From NCBI GenBank assembly GCA_965213675.1, contig OZ243916.1, positions 2,112,001-2,176,000 on the forward strand: 64,000 nucleotides of DNA. The letters are read 5' to 3'. A model generated the notes under the pieces. The model did not search any database, was not told the DNA's origin, and saw only the letters and a list, made by a program, of their open reading frames with translations. Every line of letters starts with the position of its first letter. Within the stretch, counting starts at the first letter, position 1. Shown here one piece after another: positions 1-10,736 of the stretch. The DNA comes from an uncultured Candidatus Binatia bacterium (GTDB lineage Bacteria > Desulfobacterota > Binatia > UBA9968 > JAJDTQ01). The position numbers and the translations under genes were made by a program.

Positions 1-120
1 ATCACTCCTGCGTGACGGGCGCCACGCGTGAAGGAGCCACGCAGCCGGCGGCGAAACCCGCATTTACGTCTACGAATTTACGGTACGCAACATCGGTTCG
101 TGGTTGCCGACCTGCCGGAG

Positions 121-642
121 CTACGACCGGTCCAGTCGGAGGTTGCGAAAAACGGCCATACGGGGATCCCCCGGCAACGTGCACCCGCACGTGGTCCGGT
201 TCAATTCAGCGCCGCAGTCGGGGCACAGGCCGCGGCAATTCTCACTGCACAGGGGCCGGAGGGGAAGGGCGAGCAGCGTCTGCTCACGGACGAAGGGCGC
301 GAGGTCGATGTCCTCCCCGGTGTAGAAGCTCAAGCCCATTTCGTCCGCCGTCAACTCCTTGCTCTTGTTAGTCGGAAGGGGGTCCGGGGTCAATACGAAG
401 TCGAACGATTTCTCGATCACGAAGCCGCACGCTTCCAGACAGCGGCTGCACTCGGCTTCCGCCTCCCCCTTGAGACTCCCGTGGAAGAAGACCTCCCGTC
501 CAGACCGATAGTAGGAGACCTCCACCTGAATCGGTGACGGGAGGCGGACCCCCGCTGGAACTCCTTCCCGAACAACGTCGAGAACTTCGGCGAAACGCGT
601 CTCCCTGGGTACGGTGTCGATACGGCTAAGGGGGATTCTCAA
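121..642 (-). CDS. yceD: YceD/DUF177 family protein (large ribosomal subunit accumulation)
   Basis: C-terminal part of ORF 121..1779: 'ECSRCL', 'IDLAPFVREQTLLALPLRPLCSENCRGLCPDCG', 'DPR'. TTG start at 642 with GGAG upstream. A GGAG at the window edge (minus strand, near 4-9) fits a following rpmF outside the window. Confidence 0.85.
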   Translation of the reverse strand: MRIPLSRIDTVPRETRFAEVLDVVREGVPAGVRLPSPIQVEVSYYRSGREVFFHGSLKGEAEAECSRCLEACGFVIEKSFDFVLTPDPLPTNKSKELTADEMGLSFYTGEDIDLAPFVREQTLLALPLRPLCSENCRGLCPDCGAELNRTTCGCTLPGDPRMAVFRNLRLDRS

Positions 643-837
643 GGCCGCTCCAGTCAAACAATCTTCATAGCTGGCAGCCGCGAAGCCTGTCAATCTCCCG
701 GGCTCTGCGGCCACCGGCGCGCCTTGTGCAGGTGAATCGTTTCTGTTAACGCATGTCTCCGTGAGTTTTCCTCCGCACGTCCGACACGCTTGGCCTCGAA
801 GCCCCGCCCGCTCGCGCCACACCGTGGGAGCGGCCGC

Positions 838-1746
838 GTGAACGCCCGCCTCGGACTGGTGCACGCCGTGCTGCTGGCCACGGCGGACCTCGGCGCCACG
901 GTGCCGCCGCAGCACCCATCCGCCCGGAACCTCGGCACCGAGCGCATGGGCTCGGGAACCGTCGTCGATCCGGCCGGCGTCATCCTGACGGTGAATTATG
1001 TCGTGAACGGCGCCGACTCCATCACTGTAACGCTCTCCGACGGGAAACAATACCCCGGACAGATCATGGCGCAGGACTTCGACAGCGGCATCGCGCTGGT
1101 GAAGATCGACGCCCGCGACCTGCCCTTTCTGCGCCCGGCGGAAACCGTGACCGTGGGTCAGCCCGCCTTCATGATCGCCAGCAGCGGCGACCACAACCGG
1201 CGCGTCAGCGACGGCTACGTGACCTCGCTGGAAGGGTACGACGGACAGTGGGAGTACATGCTGGAGAAGTCCATCCGTGTGAGCGCCTTCAATCCGGGCT
1301 TCGGCGGCGGCACCCTGGCGGACTCCCGCGGACGGCTGCTGGGGGTCGTGTCGCTGAACCTCAACGAAATCGGAAAGTTCACCATGGCCATCCCGGTGGA
1401 GTTCTACCTCCGGGACGCGGATGAGCTGCGGAATTTCGGCCGGGTACGCAGCCGCCCCGCGCGCCCCTGGCTCGGCCTGTACTCGCAGGCCATGGGCGGG
1501 CACCTGCTGGTCACCGGCGTGACGCCGTCCGGGCCCGCGGAAACGGCGGGGCTCAAGCAGGGCGACATCATTCTGGCCGTGGAGGACCAGGACGTGCAGA
1601 CCCGACCCCAGCTCTACCGGGAAATGTGGAAGAGGCAGGCGGGCGATGTCATCACCTTCCGCGTGATCCGGGGCAACGGCTCCATGGACATCGCGGTTCC
1701 CAGCATCGACCGCTGGGAGCGCAACAACCCGCCAAGCGGCGCCTGA
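838..1746 (+). CDS. HtrA/S1C-like trypsin domain plus PDZ protein with degenerate catalytic residues
   Basis: 'GSGTVVD..G.ILT', 'RPWLG', PDZ 'GPAETAGLKQGDII'. GTG start after GGGAG. Catalytic His and Ser motifs read TVNYV and NPGFGGG. Confidence 0.8.
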   Translation: MNARLGLVHAVLLATADLGATVPPQHPSARNLGTERMGSGTVVDPAGVILTVNYVVNGADSITVTLSDGKQYPGQIMAQDFDSGIALVKIDARDLPFLRPAETVTVGQPAFMIASSGDHNRRVSDGYVTSLEGYDGQWEYMLEKSIRVSAFNPGFGGGTLADSRGRLLGVVSLNLNEIGKFTMAIPVEFYLRDADELRNFGRVRSRPARPWLGLYSQAMGGHLLVTGVTPSGPAETAGLKQGDIILAVEDQDVQTRPQLYREMWKRQAGDVITFRVIRGNGSMDIAVPSIDRWERNNPPSGA

Positions 1747-1829
1747 GAACGGCGCAAGCTCCCAGGCCGTGCCGGCCACGGTCCGGGCCCGGAGCGCTGG
1801 ACACGGTCATTGACGAAGCGGTGCGCCGC

Positions 1830-2231
1830 GTGAAGAACGTCACCTCCTATCGCGTCATCTACGGCGACACGGACCAGATGGGCGTCGCCTACTACGCCAA
1901 CTATCTTCGCTGGTTCGAGATCGGCAGGACCGAGTTCATGCGCGAGGCCGGCGTTCCGTATGACCAGGCCGAACGGGAGGGCATCTTCTTCCCCGTGACC
2001 GAAGTGCAGTGCCGCTATCGCAAGCCGGCCCTCTACGACCACCTGCTGTGGATCGAGACCACCATCGAATCCGTGAGTCCGGTGGCGGTGCGGTTCCATT
2101 ACCGCATCGGTCTCGAAGGGGAGCGCACCGCGCTGGCGTCGGGCTGGACGAAGCACGCCTGCCTGGGCCGCGAGCGCCGGCTGACGCCGTTGCCCGAAAC
2201 CTATGTCCGCCGCCTGGGGCTCACGGTCTGA
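1830..2231 (+). CDS. YbgC/FadM family acyl-CoA thioesterase
   Basis: 'RVIYGDTDQMGVAYYANYLRWFEIGRTE' hot-dog thioesterase motif; start approximate. Confidence 0.85.
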   Translation: MKNVTSYRVIYGDTDQMGVAYYANYLRWFEIGRTEFMREAGVPYDQAEREGIFFPVTEVQCRYRKPALYDHLLWIETTIESVSPVAVRFHYRIGLEGERTALASGWTKHACLGRERRLTPLPETYVRRLGLTV

Positions 2232-2270
2232 CCGCGGCTCCGACCCAAGGGCGCTGTTCCAAACGATGTA

Positions 2271-3605
2271 TCAGGGAGCCGGCTCCACCGCGGCTTGCAG
2301 GCCGGCGGCGGCTTCGAGGCGAGGGGCGCCGTAGGTCTCCGCGACACACCGCAAGAGCGCAATATTGTTCGCGTGTCCCGTCATCCGCGCGCTCACCCGG
2401 CCCCGGATCGGACGGCCGATGAGCGAGAAGTCGCCAACGATGTCCAGTATCTTGTGACGTACGAACTCGTCGTCGAAGCGCAGGGCGGTGTTGATGACCC
2501 GCTCGTCGTCAATGAGGATACAGTTGCCGAGGCGGCCGCCCTTGATCAACCCCATCCGTTCGAGTTTCTCGAAATCGCGCAGGAAGCCGAAGGTCCGCGC
2601 CGGGGCGATCTCGTCCCGAAACGATCCCGCCCCCTCGTGGACGTAGGTGTATTCCTGGGTGCCCACGGGGCTCGGATAACTCAGGTGATAGCGCACCGTG
2701 AAGACGTCCGCCGGTTCGATGACGATCTCCTCCGGTCCGCTGCCGCGAACACGCAGGGTTCGATCGATGACGATCTCCGGACACACCCCCTCCTGTTCTT
2801 CCACCCCCGCTTCCTCGATCAGGCGGCAAAACTCCAGGGCCGAGCCGTCCAGGATGGGGATCTCGCCGTACATCTTGATCAGCAGATTGGTGATGCCATA
2901 GGCGTGAAGGGCCGCCATCAGGTGCTCGACGGTACCCACCACCGCGCCGCCACGGCGCAACGACGTGGCGAAGTCGGTGGAGCGCACGAAGTCCAGGTGG
3001 GCCGGAACGGTGGCGTCGCCGGAGATGCCGCCGAAGTGAATGCCGCTGTCGGCCGGCAACGGGTGCAGGATCACGCCGGTGCTGACGCCCGAGTGCAACC
3101 CCAGCCCGCATGCCACGACGCTCTTGCGGAGGGTTCTCTGGCGTGCGCCGCCGTCCGCGCCAACAGCCGTGGCCGACGGCGCGGGCATCCGGCACAACCG
3201 CGGCCGTTCCCCGGCCGCCGGACCCTCGCGCCCCGCGTTGCCGCAGGCGCGCTCGATGGTGGCCAGCAACCCGTCCAGGGAAAGCGGCTTCTCGATGAAG
3301 TCGAAGGCGCCGAGCTTGGTCGCCGTGACCGCCGTGTGGATGCTTCCATGACCTGAAATCATGATGACGCGGGCCTCGGGATGCGCGCTCTTGATCTGCT
3401 TCAACAGCACGATTCCGTCCATCTCGGGCATCCAGATGTCCAGCAGGATCACGTCGGGCGCCTCTTGCGCCACCCGTTGCAGGACCTCGGACCCCTCGGT
3501 CGCCGCGATCACCCGGTAACCCTCGTCGGCAAGGATCTCGCGTACGGTCTCGCGGATGACGTCCTCGTCATCCACCACCAGCACGGTTCGTTGCGCTGCC
3601 TGCAT
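2271..3605 (-). CDS. lpxC: Response-regulator receiver domain fused to UDP-3-O-acyl-N-acetylglucosamine deacetylase (REC-LpxC)
   Basis: N-terminus 'VLVVDDE...LLDIWMPEMDG...MISGHG...FIEKP' (REC). C-terminus 'QRTL...GLGLHSG', 'TVEHLMAAL', 'EIPILDGSA', 'EIAPARTFGF', 'RHKILDIVGD', 'GHANN' (LpxC). One uninterrupted frame; GGAGGG RBS. Confidence 0.93.
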   Translation of the reverse strand: MQAAQRTVLVVDDEDVIRETVREILADEGYRVIAATEGSEVLQRVAQEAPDVILLDIWMPEMDGIVLLKQIKSAHPEARVIMISGHGSIHTAVTATKLGAFDFIEKPLSLDGLLATIERACGNAGREGPAAGERPRLCRMPAPSATAVGADGGARQRTLRKSVVACGLGLHSGVSTGVILHPLPADSGIHFGGISGDATVPAHLDFVRSTDFATSLRRGGAVVGTVEHLMAALHAYGITNLLIKMYGEIPILDGSALEFCRLIEEAGVEEQEGVCPEIVIDRTLRVRGSGPEEIVIEPADVFTVRYHLSYPSPVGTQEYTYVHEGAGSFRDEIAPARTFGFLRDFEKLERMGLIKGGRLGNCILIDDERVINTALRFDDEFVRHKILDIVGDFSLIGRPIRGRVSARMTGHANNIALLRCVAETYGAPRLEAAAGLQAAVEPAP

Positions 3606-3670
3606 GGTCCTTGATCCCTCCACAAAAGGCGCGGGGCCGAACCCCGGCTTCCGCGCTCGCGCGTCACGCG

Positions 3671-5914
3671 TCACGACGCCTCGCTCACGCGCACCTCCAG
3701 CGGTTCCGCCTGCGCCGCCACCGGAAACTCGATGATGAAGCGTGTGCCGCGGGGCTGGTTCTGGCGCACGCGAATGTAGCCCCGATGGTCGGCCACGATG
3801 GTGCCGACTATGGAGAGCCCCAGTCCCGTGCCCTCGTCCTTGGTCGAATAGTACGGTTCGAAGATCCGACCCCGATCCTCCCGGGCGATGCCCCCGCCCT
3901 CGTCCGCCACCTCCAGCCGCACCATGCCGAAGGCCTCATCGAAACGCGTGGTGATCTCGATGCGTCCGCTGCCGCCCAGGGACGCCACCGCATTGTCCAG
4001 CAGGTTGAACAAGGCGCGCTTGATCTGCTCGCGGTCCAGCTCCACCAGCGGAATGGCGTCCCGCTCCAGGAAATCGAATTCCACTTCCCGGTGGCCTTCC
4101 TTGAAGAGGAACAGCGCCTCCCGCACCACCTCGTTCAGGTCGTCGGCGCCGAGCCTGGCCGTGGGCAGGCGCGCGAAATTCGAGAACTCGTTCACCAGTG
4201 TCTTGAGCTCGTCCACCTGGCGGATAATCGTGGAAGTGCACTTGTCGAGCACCGCGCCGTCTCCGTCCAGAACGTTCTCGTAGCGCTTGCGCAGACGCTG
4301 CGCCGATAGCTGAATCGGCGTCAGCGGGTTCTTGATCTCGTGGGCGATGCGGCGCGCCACCTCGCGCCATGCCTCCACGCGCTGCATGCTCTGGATCTCG
4401 GTGAGATCTTCCATAAACACCATGACCCCGAGCGTGTGGCCCTCGTCATCGCGCAGGTCGGCGGCCACGGTCATAAGCGTCCGGCCGCGCTCAGCGCCGC
4501 CGATACGCACGCCGCACTCCACCGTGACGCCGTCCTTCACCTGCTCGATGACCTCGAGCAGGGGCTGCAACTCCGGCGCCTCCAGCGCCTCCTCGTAGCG
4601 CCGCTGCAGGATGTCCGGGGCGCGGAGATCCAGGATCTGCTCCGCGGCCTTGTTGACGATGGTCACCTTGCCGAACCGATCCACCGAGATCACCCCGGCG
4701 GTGATGTTGGCGAGCAGCGTCTCCATGTATTGCCGCCGCTGCTCCAGTTCGGAGTGTGTGCGCTTGAGGTCCTCGGTCATCTGGTTGAATGAGGTCACCA
4801 GCGTGCCGATCTCGTCGTCGCCACCGCTCTCGATGCGGTAGTCCAGGTTGCCGTGGGCGACTTCGTGGGTGCCCTCGGCCAACTGCTGAATCGGCACGGT
4901 GATGCCCTTGGCCAGCGCAAAGCCGAACCACGACGCCGCGAAGATCATCACCAGGGTGATGAGCAGCAGCGTCAGCATGTACGCGTTCTTCACCGGCTCG
5001 TTGAGGATGGCCATGTGTTTGTACTCTTCGTACGAACGGGCGATGGCCTGCGCCTTCTTGCTGACGCTCACGGGCACGAAGTAGTCCACCACCACCGCGC
5101 CGATGATCCGCCTGCCCTCGCCGTAGACCGGCACCGCGCCGCGCAGCACGTCGCCATCACCCAGCGCCTCGCTCCGCGTCACCTCGAGGCCGCGCAACGC
5201 GCTATCGAGGAAATCCGCCCGGGGCCTGACCATCACTCCCGTGGGCACCTGGTCGTTGAACGCCTTCACCAACGCCGTGCCGTCCGGCTTGTAGACCTCC
5301 ACCGTGCCGAGGTTGTATTCCCGCTGCTTCTCCTCCACCAGGCGCTTCAACCGGTCTGCGTTCCGGGACTCGAAGAGATCCGCGTCACCGATGCGGTAGC
5401 TCAGCTCGCGGGCGAAGAAGAGCGCGTTGTCGGCCGAGTTCCGGTAGTAGGCGGAGCTGATGTCAAGGGAGCCGCTGAGCGCGTTGACCACCTGGGCGTC
5501 GAACCATTTGTCCACGGAACGGGTCACGAGGCTTCCGGCTGTCAGGAACAGCAGCACCGTGGGCACGAGCGAGAGACCGATGAACGCCAGCACCAAGCGG
5601 GCCTGGAGGCGCGAACCCAGAATGCGCCGGCGCCGGTCCAGCACCAGTTTCAGGAGGTTCCGCGCCACCAGGAACACCAGCAGCGCCAGCAGGATGATGT
5701 TGATGTTGACCAGCAGGAAGAACGCGATGTTGCTGACGAGGGTGTAGTCCGCGGAAACCTCGGGCAGGATATCCTCGAAAAACGCGAACAGCAGAATCAT
5801 CAGGGCGGCGATGAGAATCAGCCACCATTCGCGCCGGCGGCGCCTGCCTTCCGCGAATTGAAGCGCCTGCGCCTTTCCTTCGTCGGCTTTGGCTGTGCTC
5901 ATTGGAGTGGCCAT
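3671..5914 (-). CDS. ntrY: NtrY-like membrane sensor histidine kinase (TM-periplasmic-HAMP-PAS-HisKA-HATPase)
   Basis: 'AWREVARRIAHEIKNPLTPIQLSAQRL' H-box typical of NtrY; 'NLLDNA', 'DEGGG', 'FEPYYSTK..GTGLGL'; HAMP 'DDEIGTLVTSFNQM'. Confidence 0.88.
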   Translation of the reverse strand: MATPMSTAKADEGKAQALQFAEGRRRRREWWLILIAALMILLFAFFEDILPEVSADYTLVSNIAFFLLVNINIILLALLVFLVARNLLKLVLDRRRRILGSRLQARLVLAFIGLSLVPTVLLFLTAGSLVTRSVDKWFDAQVVNALSGSLDISSAYYRNSADNALFFARELSYRIGDADLFESRNADRLKRLVEEKQREYNLGTVEVYKPDGTALVKAFNDQVPTGVMVRPRADFLDSALRGLEVTRSEALGDGDVLRGAVPVYGEGRRIIGAVVVDYFVPVSVSKKAQAIARSYEEYKHMAILNEPVKNAYMLTLLLITLVMIFAASWFGFALAKGITVPIQQLAEGTHEVAHGNLDYRIESGGDDEIGTLVTSFNQMTEDLKRTHSELEQRRQYMETLLANITAGVISVDRFGKVTIVNKAAEQILDLRAPDILQRRYEEALEAPELQPLLEVIEQVKDGVTVECGVRIGGAERGRTLMTVAADLRDDEGHTLGVMVFMEDLTEIQSMQRVEAWREVARRIAHEIKNPLTPIQLSAQRLRKRYENVLDGDGAVLDKCTSTIIRQVDELKTLVNEFSNFARLPTARLGADDLNEVVREALFLFKEGHREVEFDFLERDAIPLVELDREQIKRALFNLLDNAVASLGGSGRIEITTRFDEAFGMVRLEVADEGGGIAREDRGRIFEPYYSTKDEGTGLGLSIVGTIVADHRGYIRVRQNQPRGTRFIIEFPVAAQAEPLEVRVSEAS

Positions 5915-5955
5915 GACGGCTTCCCAAGCGCGGAATACGAATGCACCGGATCACA

Positions 5956-6120
5956 CTAGTGTCGCGTTCCGCAAATACGTTGACAAATCTGCTTGTCCTT
6001 TCTGCCGTCCGCTGCGTTGCTCTTCCTCGCGTGGCACACGCCACTGCTCGCCATCGCGCCTTGCCGACAACAAAATTTCCTGCGCATCTTCGTCAACGTA
6101 CTTGCGGAACGCAACACTAG
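5956..6120. mobile_element. 165-bp MITE, terminal-repeat type A (copy 1)
   Basis: CTAG at both ends; ~29-bp terminal inverted repeats CTAGTGTCGCGTTCCGCAAATACGTTGAC / GTCAACGTACTTGCGGAACGCAACACTAG; near-identical copy at 22416-22580. Confidence 0.85.
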
Positions 6121-6281
6121 TGTGGTGTCTGGTTAATTCGCGTCATAATCTGCGGGTCATTTTCGCCGTCGGCTGCGTTGCTCTTCCTCGCGTGGTACAC
6201 GCCACTGCTCGTCATCGCGCCTTGCCGACAACAAAATTTCCTCCGCACATTATGACGCGAATTAACCAGACGCCACACTAG
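6117..6281. mobile_element. 165-bp MITE, terminal-repeat type B (copy 2), sharing its CTAG with copy 1
   Basis: Terminal inverted repeats CTAGTGTGGTGTCTGGTTAATTCGCGTCATAAT / ATTATGACGCGAATTAACCAGACGCCACACTAG; related copies at 15610-15774 and 58971-59077. Confidence 0.85.
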
Positions 6282-6360
6282 ACCTTCCACCCGCAAAGCA
6301 CAAAGGGAAAGATCGTCCAGGGAAGAGCCTGATCATGCGCGCCAGCGCTTCGCAGCGCGC

Positions 6361-7398
6361 CTACAAGAGCCGCTTCTGGCGCTTCTCCCGATCCACGCGG
6401 GACGCCGACTGCGACCGTCCCAAGTGGCGGTAGGCCACCGGCGTGGCCACCCGGCCCTGGGGACGGCGCTCGAGAAAGCCCGCCTGAATGAGGTAAGGCT
6501 CGTAGGCGTCCTCCACGGTGCCGCGCTCCTCACCGATGGCGGCGGCCAGCGTGTCCAGGCCCACGGGACCGCCATCGAATTTGTCGATGATGGTGGCGAG
6601 GATCAGCGTATCCATCTTGTCGCACCCCTGCTCATCCACCTCCAGCATCTCCAGTGCCCGGCACGCCACCGGGCGGGTGATCCGTCCCTGTCCATGGACC
6701 TCCGCGTAGTCTCGCACCCGGCGCAGCAGCCGGTTGGCGATGCGCGGCGTGCCGCGGGAACGACGCGCGATCTCCAGGAAGCCGTCATCGTCGCCGCCCA
6801 CGCGCAACAGTGCCGCCGAGCGGGACAACAACCGGGCCAGCACTTCCGGTTCGTAGAAGTCGAGGCGGAACACCGCGCCGAACCGGTTGCGCAAGGCCGG
6901 CGTCAAGAGGCCGGAGCGCGTGGTGGCGCCGACGAGGGTAAAGCGCTTGAGATCGAGCTTGATGGACTTGGCGCCCGGCCCCTGGCCGATCATCACGTCC
7001 ACCTGGAAATCCTCCATGGCCGGGTAGAGCACCTCCTCCACCACGTGGTTGAGCCGGTGGATCTCGTCGATAAACAGGATGTCGCCGGCATCGAGGTTGG
7101 TGAGCAACGCGGCGAGATCGCCGGGGCGTTCGATCACCGGACCCGAGGTGGGGCGGATATTCACGCCCATCTCGTGCGAGACGAGGTGCGCCAGGGAGGT
7201 CTTGCCAAGCCCGGGCGGGCCGTGGAAGAGCAGATGATCGAGGACGTCGCCGCGCTGTTTGGCGGCGGTGATGGCGATGGCGAGGTTGGCCTTGACCTTG
7301 TCCTGCCCGACGTATTCGTCGAAGTACTGAGGACGCAGGCTCGAATCGAAGACAACGTCCTCTTCCGTGCCCGTGGGCGCAATGGTCCTGCTTTCCAT
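6361..7398 (-). CDS. ruvB: Holliday junction branch migration helicase RuvB
   Basis: '[13 protein letters not shown]', 'GPPGLGKT', 'FIDEIHRL', '[18 protein letters not shown]'. Confidence 0.97.
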
Positions 7399-7589
7399 GA
7401 ACGGGGTTCCGCCGGCGCGCTAGTGTGGCGTTGGGAGAATCCGTGGACCCGGACGCCCTGGAACTCTTCTTGCCGGCAAGACACGATGATTCGCAGGGGC
7501 GACCGGCGGTCGCCCCCATGTGGCGGGCGCCACACAGCCGATGGCGACAAGGACCCACAGATGGTTCAACGTATTCTCCCGAAGCAACA

Positions 7590-8177
7590 CTAAAGGCCGA
7601 GCTGACGCAGGGCACCCTTGAGCACCGTCTCCAGATCGGCGGCGCCCTCGTCCAGCAACCGGCGCACGACCTTGTCCGCGTCCGTGCGCCGGTAGCCCAG
7701 GTTCACCAGCGCCGACACGGCGTCGCCCCGGATTCCCGGATCCAGCGCCGGAGCCTCCGGACCGACATCCGGCAACAACGTAATTTTATCACGCAGTTCC
7801 ACGATCATGCGATCCGCCATGCGTTTGCCGATTCCCGGGATCGAGACCAGGCGGGCGACGTCGCCATCGCGCAGAGCGGCCAGCAACTCCGCCGCGGCAA
7901 GGCCCGAAAGGATGTTGAGCGCCAGCCGTGGACCGATGCCCGACACCCCGGTGAGCAGCATGAACGCCTGCTTCTCCGCCGGCTCGAAGAAGCCGAACAA
8001 CTGGATGGCGTCTTCCCGAACGTGGGTGTGTACCCACAGGCTCACCGGCTCGCCCACATCCGGCAGCCGATAGAAGACGCTCAACGCCGTGAAGAGCTGA
8101 TAGCCGACGCCGCCGACGTCGACAATGACTTCGCCCGGCGCCTTGTGGTCCAATGTACCGCGAATCCTGGCGATCAC
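7590..8177 (-). CDS. ruvA: Holliday junction branch migration protein RuvA
   Basis: 'DVGGVGY', 'HTHVREDAIQLFGF', 'GIGPRLAL', 'IPGIGKRMADRMIVELRDK'. Confidence 0.95.
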   Translation of the reverse strand: MIARIRGTLDHKAPGEVIVDVGGVGYQLFTALSVFYRLPDVGEPVSLWVHTHVREDAIQLFGFFEPAEKQAFMLLTGVSGIGPRLALNILSGLAAAELLAALRDGDVARLVSIPGIGKRMADRMIVELRDKITLLPDVGPEAPALDPGIRGDAVSALVNLGYRRTDADKVVRRLLDEGAADLETVLKGALRQLGL

Positions 8178-8266
8178 GATCAAGACTCGGAACGGTTCGG
8201 CGCGCCGTCGCCCGGCTTGGTCACCGGCGCGCACCGGGACACGACACTACGGAAGCCATCCGGCCC

Positions 8267-8857
8267 TCACCCCTTGGCCCCGGGGACGGCCTCAACCGGC
8301 CAGCGCAGCCCACGGGAACTTCTCCCGCCGCGGAACGACAGCGCGGCGCCGGTGCGGAACGCGCCCAGGTGACCGTGGCACAGGGCCATCGCCAGCGCGT
8401 CGGCGGCGTCCTCCTGAGGTTCCGCGGGCAGTTCCAGGAGGGCGGCGACCATCTGCTGTATCTGTGCCTTGCTCGCGTGCCCGTAGCCCGTCACGGCCTT
8501 CTTCACCTGGACCGAGTTGTACTCGGCCACCGGCAGATCGCCTTCAGCCGCCGCCAGCAGCGCCACGCCGCGCACCTGACCGAGCTTCAACGCGCTCTGC
8601 ACGTTGCGCGCGAGAAAGACTTTCTCCAGACTGACGCAAGTCGGCTGGTGTTCCCGGGTGACGCGGGTCAACTCGGTGAAGACGCGGTGGAGGCGACGGT
8701 CCTGCGACAGGCGGGCGGCGGCCCGCACCGTCCCGTGGGCGACGTGCCGGAGCCGGTTTCCCTCGGCGCGGATGACGCCCCAGCCGGTCTTGATGGTTCC
8801 AGGGTCTATCCCGAGGATCGTTTCGATAGGACCTTCTCCGATCCCGCCAGCCGGCAT
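8267..8857 (-). CDS. ruvC: Holliday junction resolvase RuvC
   Basis: 'ILGIDPG..KTGWG', 'SALKLGQVRG', 'VKKAVTGYGHASK', 'DAADALA'; ATG overlaps the yebC stop. Confidence 0.95.
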   Translation of the reverse strand: MPAGGIGEGPIETILGIDPGTIKTGWGVIRAEGNRLRHVAHGTVRAAARLSQDRRLHRVFTELTRVTREHQPTCVSLEKVFLARNVQSALKLGQVRGVALLAAAEGDLPVAEYNSVQVKKAVTGYGHASKAQIQQMVAALLELPAEPQEDAADALAMALCHGHLGAFRTGAALSFRGGRSSRGLRWPVEAVPGAKG

Positions 8858-9603
8858 CAACCGGCCTTCTCGAGCATCTCGTCCGAAATGTCGAAGTTCG
8901 CGGCGACGCTCTGGACGTCGTCGTGGTCCTCAAGCTCCTCGGTGAGAGTGAGGGTGCGCTCGGCCTCCTTGTCGCCAAGGGTCGTGGTGGTCTTGGGGAT
9001 CATGGTGACTTCGGCCGACACCACGGCGACTTTGGCGTTGTCGAGGCTCTCCCGGACCGCGTTGAAATCCTCGGGCGCGGTGACAATCTCGAAGACATCG
9101 TCGCTCTCGGTGACGTCCTCGGCGCCGGCCTCGAGCGCCACGCCGATCAACTCGTCCTCGTCCACCGTGTCCCGGGACACGACGATAAGCCCCTTGCTGT
9201 CAAACATCCACGCCACGCAGCCGGTCTCGCCGAGGCTGCCGCCGTGCTTGTTGAACAGCCGGCGAATGTCCGACACCGTACGGTTGCGGTTGTCCGTCAG
9301 CACCTGCACCAGGAAGGCGGCGCCGCCCGGCCCATAACCCTCGTAGTGGATTTCCTCGTAGGACACCCCTTCGAGCTCGCCCGTACCCTTCTTGATGGCG
9401 CGCTCGATGTTGTCGTTGGGCATGCTGTTCTCACGGGCCGTCTGCACCGCGGTGCGCAGGCGCGGGTTGTTCGTCAGGTCCCCGCCGCCCATGCGCGCGG
9501 CCACCGTGATCTCCTTGATGAACTTGGTGAACAGCTTTCCGCGCTTGGCGTCCTTGGCCGCCTTCTTGTGCTTGATGGTGCTCCATTTCGAATGTCCGGA
9601 CAT
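8857..9603 (-). CDS. yebC: YebC/PmpR family protein
   Basis: '[14 protein letters not shown]', 'YEGYGPGG', 'TDNRNRT', 'DDVQSV'; canonical yebC-ruvCAB order. Confidence 0.96.
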
Positions 9604-9980
9604 GGCGCGACACGCTCCTCCAACAAAATCCGCCGACAGCGGCCGCCAAGTCGCGGTTGCGAGGTTGCCGGAGTGCTTGCCAACCGGTTCCCGCGGACAG
9701 CGGCAGACTTGTCGACAGGATAAAAGCTACCATAACTGGCGCCGGCCCGTAAACGGAGCCGGGAGAGCGGAACCGGTGGGAGGGCAACGATTCCCGGCTG
9801 GGCCCTGGATCGCCTCGGCAAGCGTGGCGAGCGTGATGCGGACCGAGCGGGATGCGGGCTTTGGGCGCGGCCGATTTCCCTTTCCGAGGTCGATCCGGGG
9901 GCGAAATGGGGATCGCCGGACGAGTCGGCGGCCCCGGCAGCGCTTCCATGAGGCTGGCATTCCGGTATAATTCAGAGTCG

Positions 9981-10736
9981 ATGGCTCCCCCACCCTCACG
10001 GCGACCATGCGCCCGCGTTTGGCCTTGGGTCATCGCATCCCTCGTGGCGCTTGCGGCGTGCGCGCCCACGAACCCGAACCCCACGAATCGGGATTCTTCA
10101 CGGCCCGACGTCTCACGGTCGGTTCCCACGATGCCGCCGGACACGCCGCGTGTCCCCACCTCTCCCAAGGTTCCGCTGGCGCAGGAGGGCGTCGCGTCCT
10201 GGTACGGCCCGGGCTTTCACGGCAGGAAGACCAGCAGCGGCGCCGTCTTCGACCAGCACGGCATGACCGCCGCGCACCAGACCCTGCCGCTGGGATCCAG
10301 CGTTCACGTCACCAATCTCACCAACGGCAAGTCCGTCACCGTTCTGATCAACGACCGCGGCCCGTTCGTCAAGAATCGGGTGATCGACCTCTCCTACGCC
10401 GCGGCCCGCGCGGTGGACATGATCCGGCCCGGCATCGTGCCGGTACGGCTGAAGGTCGTGGACACGGGCGGTCACGACCTCCAGGCCATCCCGGACCGCC
10501 TCGACTACACCTTGCAGGTGGGGGCCTTTACCGTGCTGGCCAAGGCGGAGAATCTGAAGACACGGCTCCAGAGCCGTTACAACCGCCCCGTCGTCATCGA
10601 AGCCCACGGAGACTACTACCGCGTCCGCCTCGGCATCTTCGCCGACTACTCCGCCGCCAAGGACTACGGCGCCCGATTGAATCGGGACGGCCTGCCCGCG
10701 GTAGTGGTGGAGAAATGGCCGCCAGCGGGGCCGTGA
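9981..10736 (+). CDS. rlpA: RlpA family septal ring lytic transglycosylase lipoprotein with SPOR domain
   Basis: Lipobox 'LAAC'; DPBB 'GVASWYG..FHG.KT', 'TAAHQTLP', 'INDRGPF', 'IDLSYAAA'; SPOR 'LQVGAF...YRVRLG'. Confidence 0.9.
   Translation: MAPPPSRRPCARVWPWVIASLVALAACAPTNPNPTNRDSSRPDVSRSVPTMPPDTPRVPTSPKVPLAQEGVASWYGPGFHGRKTSSGAVFDQHGMTAAHQTLPLGSSVHVTNLTNGKSVTVLINDRGPFVKNRVIDLSYAAARAVDMIRPGIVPVRLKVVDTGGHDLQAIPDRLDYTLQVGAFTVLAKAENLKTRLQSRYNRPVVIEAHGDYYRVRLGIFADYSAAKDYGARLNRDGLPAVVVEKWPPAGP

Follow-up and report, generated by a model that had tools for sequence, protein, structure and literature searches.

A receiver domain fused to LpxC beside an NtrY-type sensor kinase: a proposed phosphorylation switch on lipid A synthesis in Binatia-like and related Desulfobacterota lineages

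Here we describe a gene in which the receiver domain (REC) of a response regulator is joined to LpxC, the committed enzyme of lipid A synthesis and an antibiotic target. The gene lies directly downstream of a gene for an NtrY-type sensor histidine kinase, in a stretch of 64,000 nucleotides (hereafter the window) from an uncultured Candidatus Binatia bacterium (contig OZ243916.1 of assembly GCA_965213675.1). We consider it probable that the REC-LpxC protein is a response regulator with LpxC as its output, partnered by the NtrY-type kinase and directly controlled by phosphorylation. On a broader scale, we lean towards a model for Binatia-like and several related Desulfobacterota lineages in which an NtrY-type envelope sensor phosphorylates a receiver carried on the cell's only LpxC and switches lipopolysaccharide (LPS) flux directly. 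This arrangement would replace a circuit of sigma54 and an enhancer-binding protein that transcribed lpxC, and decaying intermediates of the form REC-AAA+-HTH-LpxC (HTH, helix-turn-helix) would survive from the transition.

The protein of 444 amino acids consists of three parts, a complete REC, a disordered linker of 30 amino acids and a complete LpxC (Table 1). A first-pass annotation of the same DNA had described an NtrY-like kinase gene followed, 65 bp downstream on the same strand, by one open reading frame made of a complete receiver, a linker at about 3140-3240 and a full LpxC. The distance holds with an ATG start at position 3605, and the three parts are borne out by Pfam and by a structural model; the linker corresponds to 3150-3239. 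In the numbering of the longest frame, of 467 amino acids, Pfam locates Response_reg at residues 31-140 (E 1.6e-32) and LpxC at residues 179-444 (E 1.6e-81), and neither an AAA+ domain nor a Fis-type HTH is detected in the protein. An AlphaFold2 model of the full-length protein (predicted local distance difference test, pLDDT, 83.1) consists of two folded domains with a disordered connection at residues 124-151, where pLDDT falls below 50. The predicted template modelling score of this model is 0.84 despite the disordered linker; such a value might point to a defined arrangement of the two domains, but we do not use it. Similarly, nothing is drawn from a predicted complex of the LpxC part (residues 150-444) with the REC part (residues 1-125), which had a score of 0.00 (mark 0.32). 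No solved chain spanning both the REC and the LpxC halves was found.

The receiver matched PF00072 with 112 bits (cut-off 30.2). In an alignment of 49 fusions that reaches down to 39% overall identity, the acidic pair D12 and D13, the phospho-acceptor D56, S84 of SGHG and K106 of EKP are invariant in 49 of 49 (numbering here and below is that of the 444-amino-acid protein). The first-pass annotation had listed the corresponding motifs, DD, LLDIWMP, SGHG and EKP, together with EHL, HKILD and GH of the enzyme; all are present and all are invariant in the 49 fusions. This receiver resembles that of NtrX in its DIWMP, SGHG and EKP signature and in having Brucella NtrX among its best solved relatives, which are 4d6x (E 3.5e-28) and 5m7n (E 3.2e-27). 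The latter is given as NtrX of Brucella abortus in the accessible part of its source (PMC10535256), and citations below likewise refer to the accessible part of each published text. The best-scoring receiver-type NCBIfam model was also NtrX, at 127 bits over profile positions 3-120 only, compared with a cut-off of 600 bits for the whole protein (NF051870). Identity of the window REC is 51-58% to the receivers of free sigma54 regulators adjoining NtrY-like kinases, and 36-43% to L043 and L044, the two sigma54-type regulators from the same genome that entered the comparison.

Mean pairwise identity across the 49 fusions is 0.669 for REC, 0.681 for LpxC and 0.164 for the linker, the length of which ranges from 21 to 60 amino acids. 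Since a vestigial domain would neither equal an essential enzyme in conservation nor keep five residues of phosphorylation chemistry, the comparative signal speaks for a functional receiver. From the genomic evidence, we infer that this receiver is phosphorylated by a cognate kinase.

The enzyme half matched PF03331 with 274 bits (cut-off 27) over profile positions 1-266 of 268, and TIGR00325 lpxC with 245 bits (cut-off 187). In the AlphaFold2 model, this half superimposes onto solved LpxC structures with target-normalised template modelling scores of 0.86-0.95 and root-mean-square deviations of 1.4-2.0 Å over 273-283 columns. Residues E227 and H228 (EHL), H384, K385 and D388 (HKILD), D392 and H411 (GH) are invariant in the 49 fusions as well as in all 55 fused and plain LpxC domains compared, and they align with the EHL, HKILD and GHA motifs of Pseudomonas aeruginosa LpxC. 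Presumably, as in the enzymes of Escherichia coli and Aquifex aeolicus, H228, H384 and D388 are the zinc ligands and E227 and H411 are catalytic. A comparison of 35 fused with 20 plain LpxC domains identified 14 positions that are at least 90% conserved in the former and at most 15% in the latter (Table 1), and these are candidates for a receiver-contact surface or for clade markers.

REC-LpxC is the sole LpxC match in the window's genome (G000), which also has lpxB and two copies of lpxA (G000:C1:918878-919639 and G000:C1:2898463-2899221; 326 and 284 bits, above the TIGR01852 cut-off). Deacetylase activity on UDP-3-O-acyl-GlcNAc is supported indirectly, by the presence of this protein as the only LpxC beside lpxA and lpxB. 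LapB was not found in this genome, where the best match to NF008757 reached 33 bits against a cut-off of 363 and covered central positions only. This negative result is consistent with a different mode of LpxC control and proves nothing. A match to PF18073, considered as a possible LapB, was rejected as the zinc ribbon of RadA.

The combination of Response_reg and LpxC that had been noticed in this one genome is widespread. Both Pfam domains are present in all of the at least 120 best database relatives listed, which are 63-100% identical, come from several sources and in some cases carry the name Candidatus Binatia or Deltaproteobacteria bacterium. Within the order, 40 of the 41 genomes (three families, 10 genera) have the full-length fusion and the 41st has it split over two contigs; it is also present in five of five other genomes of the class. 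Of 200 other genomes sampled from the phylum at large, other classes included, 47 have a fused-type LpxC. These 47 comprise 26 full-length matches and 21 in which the match (E <= 3e-83) is confined to the LpxC part; ten of the 21 were examined and all ten are fusions, four of them REC-LpxC with longer linkers and six longer fusions. Among the best 150 library representatives (50% identity) there are about 22 REC-LpxC and about 15 REC-AAA+-LpxC proteins. Genome comparison thus confirms that the fusion is real and old and not an artefact. As a separate observation, a continuous frame of 656 amino acids in genome G237 (L035:5992-7962, minus strand) comprises a thiamine-phosphate synthase (TMP-TENI), REC and LpxC, and may be a triple fusion or an over-extended open reading frame in GC-rich DNA.

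The gene upstream of the fusion encodes a protein in which Pfam recognizes five domains in the order typical of NtrY, the NtrY_N match being weak (29.4 bits against a cut-off of 23.2). Weak Cache-type matches lie between the N-terminal hydrophobic segments and HAMP, in an extracytoplasmic Cache/PDC-like stretch, and the H-box in the translation reads HEIKN (H+4 = N). Based on this domain set, we assign the protein to the NtrY-type membrane sensor kinases. It is the sole NtrY_N match in the window's genome. The first-pass annotation had left room for a second lpxC or a separate ntrX elsewhere in the genome, and neither was found there, the best match to NtrX scoring 360 bits against the cut-off of 600.

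Full-length orthologues of the kinase (39-47% identity) adjoin fused or plain lpxC in relatives. Synteny of the fusion with ntrY holds in 17 of 35 nonredundant fused loci, in which an NtrY-like kinase gene lies directly upstream. These loci include all 10 of the genus, three of three from other families of the class, one from another class and three of the six long forms described below. In five of five searched genomes with an unlinked REC-LpxC, one full-length NtrY orthologue is encoded elsewhere, and its flanks yielded no regulator-like gene. In the four of these genomes where the gene following this orthologue was examined, it is smpB in three and a carbamoyltransferase gene in one. A kinase without a regulator together with an unlinked receiver-enzyme would be expected if REC-LpxC had taken the place of the regulator.

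A gene for a DUF4390 protein precedes the kinase in relatives' loci L027, L039, L078, L081, L083 and L084; among the unlinked-NtrY loci scanned with Pfam, two have it in this position. There was no DUF4390 match in the window's genome, but control genomes gave none either. Other arrangements were observed in single genomes or families. In genome G074, locus L077 (G074:C33:13000-23000) has the order lpxC, NtrY-like kinase, lpxK, so that the kinase gene is flanked by two lipid A genes, and a divergent paralogue of REC-LpxC is encoded at another site of this genome (L037). In loci where REC-LpxC lacks a neighboring kinase gene, a small HTH_17 gene follows it in family f19 (L023:7832-8227 and L030:7071-7475, both plus strand), and an Hsp20 gene precedes it in family f21 (L024:7460-8023 and L033:7419-7868, both minus strand).

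Comparison with relatives in which the regulator and the enzyme are separate suggests how the fusion arose. In four extended loci in this state, lpxC, a DUF4390 gene (detected in two of the four), an NtrY-like kinase gene and a regulator gene stand in this order. The kinases, of 733-752 amino acids, are 38-44% identical to the window kinase over nearly their full length. The regulators, of 453-470 amino acids, share the DIWMP, SGHG and EKP receiver signature with the window REC, and the one regulator scanned with Pfam (L078) has strong matches to Sigma54_activat, AAA_lid and HTH_8. All four aligned free regulators keep GAFTGA (GSFTGA in L078) and the Walker B DE. In 20 loci with plain lpxC (L051-L070), taken with about 1 kb of flank, DUF4390 and/or a kinase N terminus follows just downstream on the same strand in 10, and in 11 the coding strand carries a -24/-12 sigma54 motif (TGGYAY-N5-TTGCW) at a distance of 10-272 nt before lpxC, where about 0.08 such loci are expected from the information content of the motif (examples in Table 1). 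The 11 motifs in 20 loci suggest that lpxC is commonly sigma54-dependent in this phylum. The fused loci contain three matches to the motif in 270,669 bases, and one of these (L042) is upstream of the fused gene, amounting to only one of 30 fused loci.

Between these two states stand long forms of 705-795 amino acids, of which all six examined consist of REC, Sigma54_activat, AAA_lid and LpxC. A search with one of them listed at least 120 clusters with this architecture, REC being listed for 119; JGI entries name many of them NtrX, and NCBI entries name them LpxC of Desulfobacterota or Thermodesulfobacteriota bacteria. In alignment, the stretch ahead of LpxC in the long forms still matches, in collinear order, the Fis-type HTH of the free regulators. 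The long forms lack GAFTGA, their Walker B DE is replaced by DS, DA, KA or IG, and the AAA+ core is partly deleted. These losses indicate that the transcription-factor motor decayed and the receiver did not. The linker of the window protein aligns where the long forms have their AAA+, lid and HTH region.

The ancestor seems to have been a canonical sigma54 activator that carried GAFTGA and had an NtrY-like kinase as its partner. At the outset, an NtrY-like kinase and a sigma54-dependent regulator of REC-AAA+-HTH architecture would have driven lpxC from a sigma54 promoter. The regulator would then have become fused to LpxC, the AAA+ module of the fusion would have lost its sigma54-contact loop and its Walker B glutamate, and finally, in the lineage of the window, the AAA+/HTH part would have been deleted, to leave REC, a flexible linker and LpxC. 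In a tree of the LpxC domain, the 35 fused and 20 plain domains are split by one branch with a Shimodaira-Hasegawa-like approximate likelihood ratio test (SH-aLRT) support of 100, which is compatible with a single origin of the fusion. We base the order from long to short on the collinear homology of the AAA+/HTH part of the long forms with the free regulators and not on tree topology. These sequence comparisons demonstrate the architecture and its conservation, and equally that the fusion descends from the regulator of the kinase and has lost the parts needed for transcriptional control. The first-pass annotation had proposed that the enzyme itself replaces the transcriptional output of NtrX. 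The proposed replacement is directly supported by the REC-AAA+-HTH-LpxC intermediates and by the free sigma54 regulators beside NtrY-like kinases and plain lpxC, whereas its attribution to NtrX needs amendment, the ancestor not being a match to the curated NtrX family.

We propose that the NtrY-type kinase would phosphorylate D56 and that the phosphorylation state of REC would determine how active the LpxC attached to it is. The receiver of CheB, when unphosphorylated, occludes the active site, and phosphorylation lifts this block. REC might similarly dock on and undock from the catalytic domain, or REC-driven dimerization might be involved; both are favored over a rigid relay by the flexible, unconserved linker. 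CheB and other receiver-enzyme regulators are built like the window protein, with the receiver at the N terminus, the catalytic domain at the C terminus and a flexible linker between them. CheB differs in enzyme, substrate and pathway, and a contact between REC and LpxC is a working model borrowed from it. Our guess is that phosphorylated REC corresponds to active LpxC, based on the ancestral regulator as an obligate activator of lpxC transcription, which needed phosphorylation to switch on a sigma54 promoter at lpxC.

Several observations weigh against a phospho-controlled REC-LpxC with the history proposed here. We infer phosphotransfer, an effect on LpxC and the sign of this effect from genome sequences. 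Loss of NtrYX in alphaproteobacteria raises lpxC transcripts, according to the accessible literature (PMC7240162), which is opposite to the sign that we favor. The kinase gene is not adjacent in 18 of the 35 fused loci, and genomes G074 and G239 also carry a plain LpxC, indicating that the fused form can have another LpxC beside it in the same genome. The linker is long and unconserved, arguing against a rigid allosteric connection, and the 14 positions characteristic of the fused clade may reflect shared descent rather than a docking surface for REC. Neither the tree of the LpxC domain nor that of concatenated REC and LpxC (rooted on a free regulator plus plain LpxC, quick search) settles the descent of short from long forms; REC-only and REC-AAA+ forms fall into a polytomy that implies one to three changes. 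Finally, the genome bin is rated 8% contaminated; nonetheless, the REC-LpxC gene is on a contig of 3.97 Mb.

Apart from control of activity, REC could set the amount of LpxC if phosphorylation exposed or hid a degron or recruited a protease, in replacement of the FtsH/LapB route of E. coli. We regard this as unlikely. It is favored by the proteolytic control of LpxC in the best-studied organisms, by the lack of a LapB match in the window's genome and by the disordered, variable linker, which would suit a degradation-initiation site, and the conservation of REC fits it as well as it fits control of activity. Receiver-type adaptors for proteolysis exist, namely RssB and CpdR. However, the similarity to RssB is a generic REC match only, and the fusion has no linked gene for a protease or an adaptor, the nearby gene for an HtrA/DegS-like protease being on the other strand.

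We give little credence to REC as a relic, that is, a phosphorylation-independent module for solubility, dimerization or localization, or a phosphate sink, attached to a constitutive LpxC. Fusions of neighboring genes can be neutral, the AAA+/HTH part did decay after the fusion, and the kinase is unlinked in about half of the loci, as noted above. By contrast, REC is conserved to the same degree as LpxC and far above the linker, its five residues of phosphorylation chemistry are invariant down to the most distant of the 49 fusions, and it was kept when the AAA+/HTH part was deleted. Moreover, genomes with an unlinked REC-LpxC retain an NtrY orthologue that has no regulator detected beside it. 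An assembly chimera, or a recent deletion private to the window's genome, is refuted by the recurrence of the same architecture throughout the order, in other classes and in every one of the database clusters listed.

Control of LpxC by the phosphorylation state of an attached REC, the reading that we prefer, has precedents in two-component systems that act on lpxC transcription. In Desulfovibrio vulgaris, lpxC is the single mapped target of the sigma54-dependent regulator DVU2934, and in Syntrophobacter fumaroxidans the orthologous operon has lpxC as its immediate upstream neighbor (Rajeev et al., 2011; PMC3333781). DVU2931, the kinase, and DVU2934 resemble the system described here as a two-component system dedicated to lpxC in a sulfate-reducing deltaproteobacterium, and the gene order in S. 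fumaroxidans agrees with both the separate-gene clusters and the sigma54 motifs that we found ahead of plain lpxC. The likeness drawn here is one of gene order and target. In DVU2931/DVU2934, control is transcriptional and the regulator and the enzyme are separate, whereas in the window protein the receiver is covalently joined to LpxC and the AAA+ and DNA-binding parts are gone.

The NtrY-NtrX systems of alphaproteobacteria and the PlrS-PlrR-PlrP system of Bordetella have a kinase of the same architecture as the window kinase. Deletion of ntrYX in Rhodobacter sphaeroides raised lpxC mRNA 8.8-fold and gave more LPS; the effect of NtrX on lpxC there is described as indirect, with no NtrX site at lpxC in the accessible text (Lemmer et al., 2020; PMC7240162). 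NtrYX inhibits lpxC transcription in R. sphaeroides and Caulobacter crescentus according to a 2025 review of how lipid A is regulated, which presents NtrYX and ChvGI as transcriptional inputs (PMC12444477). NtrY-NtrX is thus similar to the present system in its link to the cell envelope and to lpxC expression, but NtrX is a REC-AAA+-HTH protein acting on many genes, whereas the output of the window protein is an enzyme. The DUF4390 protein PlrP was described in 2026, on genetic evidence, as a periplasmic third component of an NtrYX-family system (PMC13001219), to which the DUF4390 gene upstream of the kinase in relatives' loci corresponds. In the accessible text of the 2025 review, the words fusion and receiver have 0 occurrences. 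Literature searches for the fusion, and for Binatota together with lipopolysaccharide, returned no description of a receiver-LpxC protein; subscription journals were not covered. For the fusion, these searches agree with the earlier statement that no characterized example is known. A connection between this two-component family and lpxC has already been published, at the level of transcription (Rajeev et al., 2011; Lemmer et al., 2020).

Two further kinds of system invite comparison. The bifunctional LpxC-FabZ protein (NF009667) is another natural LpxC fusion, and the LpxC part of the window protein matches positions 4-224 of that model. It differs in that FabZ is a C-terminal metabolic partner; the window protein lacks the FabZ part and scores 207 bits against a cut-off of 465. 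In E. coli, LpxC is controlled by proteolysis through FtsH/LapB/YejM. The 2025 review mentions Lon and LapB homologues, with control by Lon in some alphaproteobacteria (PMC12444477). All these controls address the same committed step, but they consist of proteases and adaptors acting on a free-standing LpxC, whereas in the window protein the enzyme itself includes a signaling domain, and the search of its genome for LapB was negative.

The fusion gene likely starts at the ATG at position 3605, because GGAGGG precedes this codon, every one of the 10 genus loci has a GGAGGA-type site before the ATG, and the alignment with homologues begins at residue 1. The longest frame in the list of open reading frames (2271..3674, minus strand) begins instead at an upstream GTG, which would give an overlap of 4 nt with the kinase stop in place of the 65-nt gap. 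The corresponding spacer measures 47-90 nt in the 10 loci of the genus. A GC-rich hairpin and then a T-run, CGCCTTTTGT, are present in the spacer (window 3632-3646, minus strand). As a conserved terminator or attenuator, this element was rejected, having no counterpart in the other nine loci of the genus, and terminator-like sites number one against 2.7 expected from shuffles. A promoter scan of window positions 2000-6500 returned no sigma70-type promoter, and a motif scan of positions 1-10000 returned no sigma54 motif.

Beyond the 3' end of the fusion gene, the window encodes an HtrA/DegS-like serine protease with a PDZ domain (790-1746, plus strand) and a YbgC/FadM-family thioesterase (1626-2231, plus strand), the gene for which is convergent with REC-lpxC; both proteins have envelope-related relatives. 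On the other side, the kinase gene is separated from the yebC-ruv genes by a gap of 446 nt with lower GC content (5915-6360).

Table 1. Coordinates of features of the REC-LpxC locus, its surroundings in the window and comparison loci
Feature	Position	Strand	Remarks
REC-LpxC fusion gene	2271..3605	-	444 aa plus stop; genome's only lpxC
LpxC deacetylase domain	2331..3149	-	residues 153-425; PF03331, TIGR00325
Linker	3150..3239	-	residues 123-152; Ala/Gly/Pro/Arg-rich, disordered
Receiver domain	3240..3587	-	residues 7-122; Response_reg E 1.6e-32
Codon of phospho-acceptor D56	3438-3440	-	D56 in LLDIWMP
Intergenic spacer, kinase stop to REC-LpxC start	3606..3670	-	65 nt; ribosome-binding site GGAGGG
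NtrY-type sensor histidine kinase gene	3671..5914	-	747 aa; NtrY_N/HAMP/PAS/HisKA/HATPase_c
HATPase_c of kinase	3716-4036	-	E 7.3e-24
HisKA of kinase	4166-4369	-	E 2.1e-11
PAS of kinase	4406-4729	-	E 6.7e-09
HAMP of kinase	4763-4915	-	E 2.7e-15
YceD (DUF177)	121-666	-	housekeeping neighbor
yebC-ruvC-ruvA-ruvB	6361-9603	-	upstream of kinase
RlpA-like DPBB plus SPOR lipoprotein	9852-10736	+	
Fused-clade LpxC positions (14)	162, 164, 176, 177, 234, 244, 260, 308, 310, 315, 317, 364, 398, 409		444-aa numbering
Long form	L026:5765-7984	-	other families of the phylum (this and the next five rows)
Long form	L027:3151-5331	+	
Long form	L028:4710-6896	+	
Long form	L029:4668-7055	+	
Long form	L038:5793-7910	-	
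Long form	L042:5777-7978	-	
sigma54 motif upstream of plain lpxC	L059:995-1010		example
sigma54 motif upstream of plain lpxC	L062:984-999		example

In conclusion, the receiver-LpxC fusion reported here adds, as judged from sequence, a new class of output to the response regulators and a newly proposed way of controlling LpxC. Its novelty is not one of category, given that receiver-enzyme regulators and two-component control of lpxC both exist. How flux through LpxC is set is a central question in outer-membrane biology, and a phospho-switch driven by a membrane sensor would, if true, constitute a third mode of LpxC control beside proteolysis and transcription. REC-LpxC is small and predicted to fold well, and standard assays exist, making the hypothesis directly testable. 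The series from separate regulator through decaying fused motor to minimal receiver-enzyme is unusually complete and makes the evolution of regulatory short-circuits open to test. The fusion also points to an NtrY-type kinase family wired to lipid A synthesis in this phylum. The physiological output of this family of kinases has so far been hard to pin down, and such a wiring would agree with the scattered transcriptional data from Desulfovibrio, Rhodobacter and Caulobacter.

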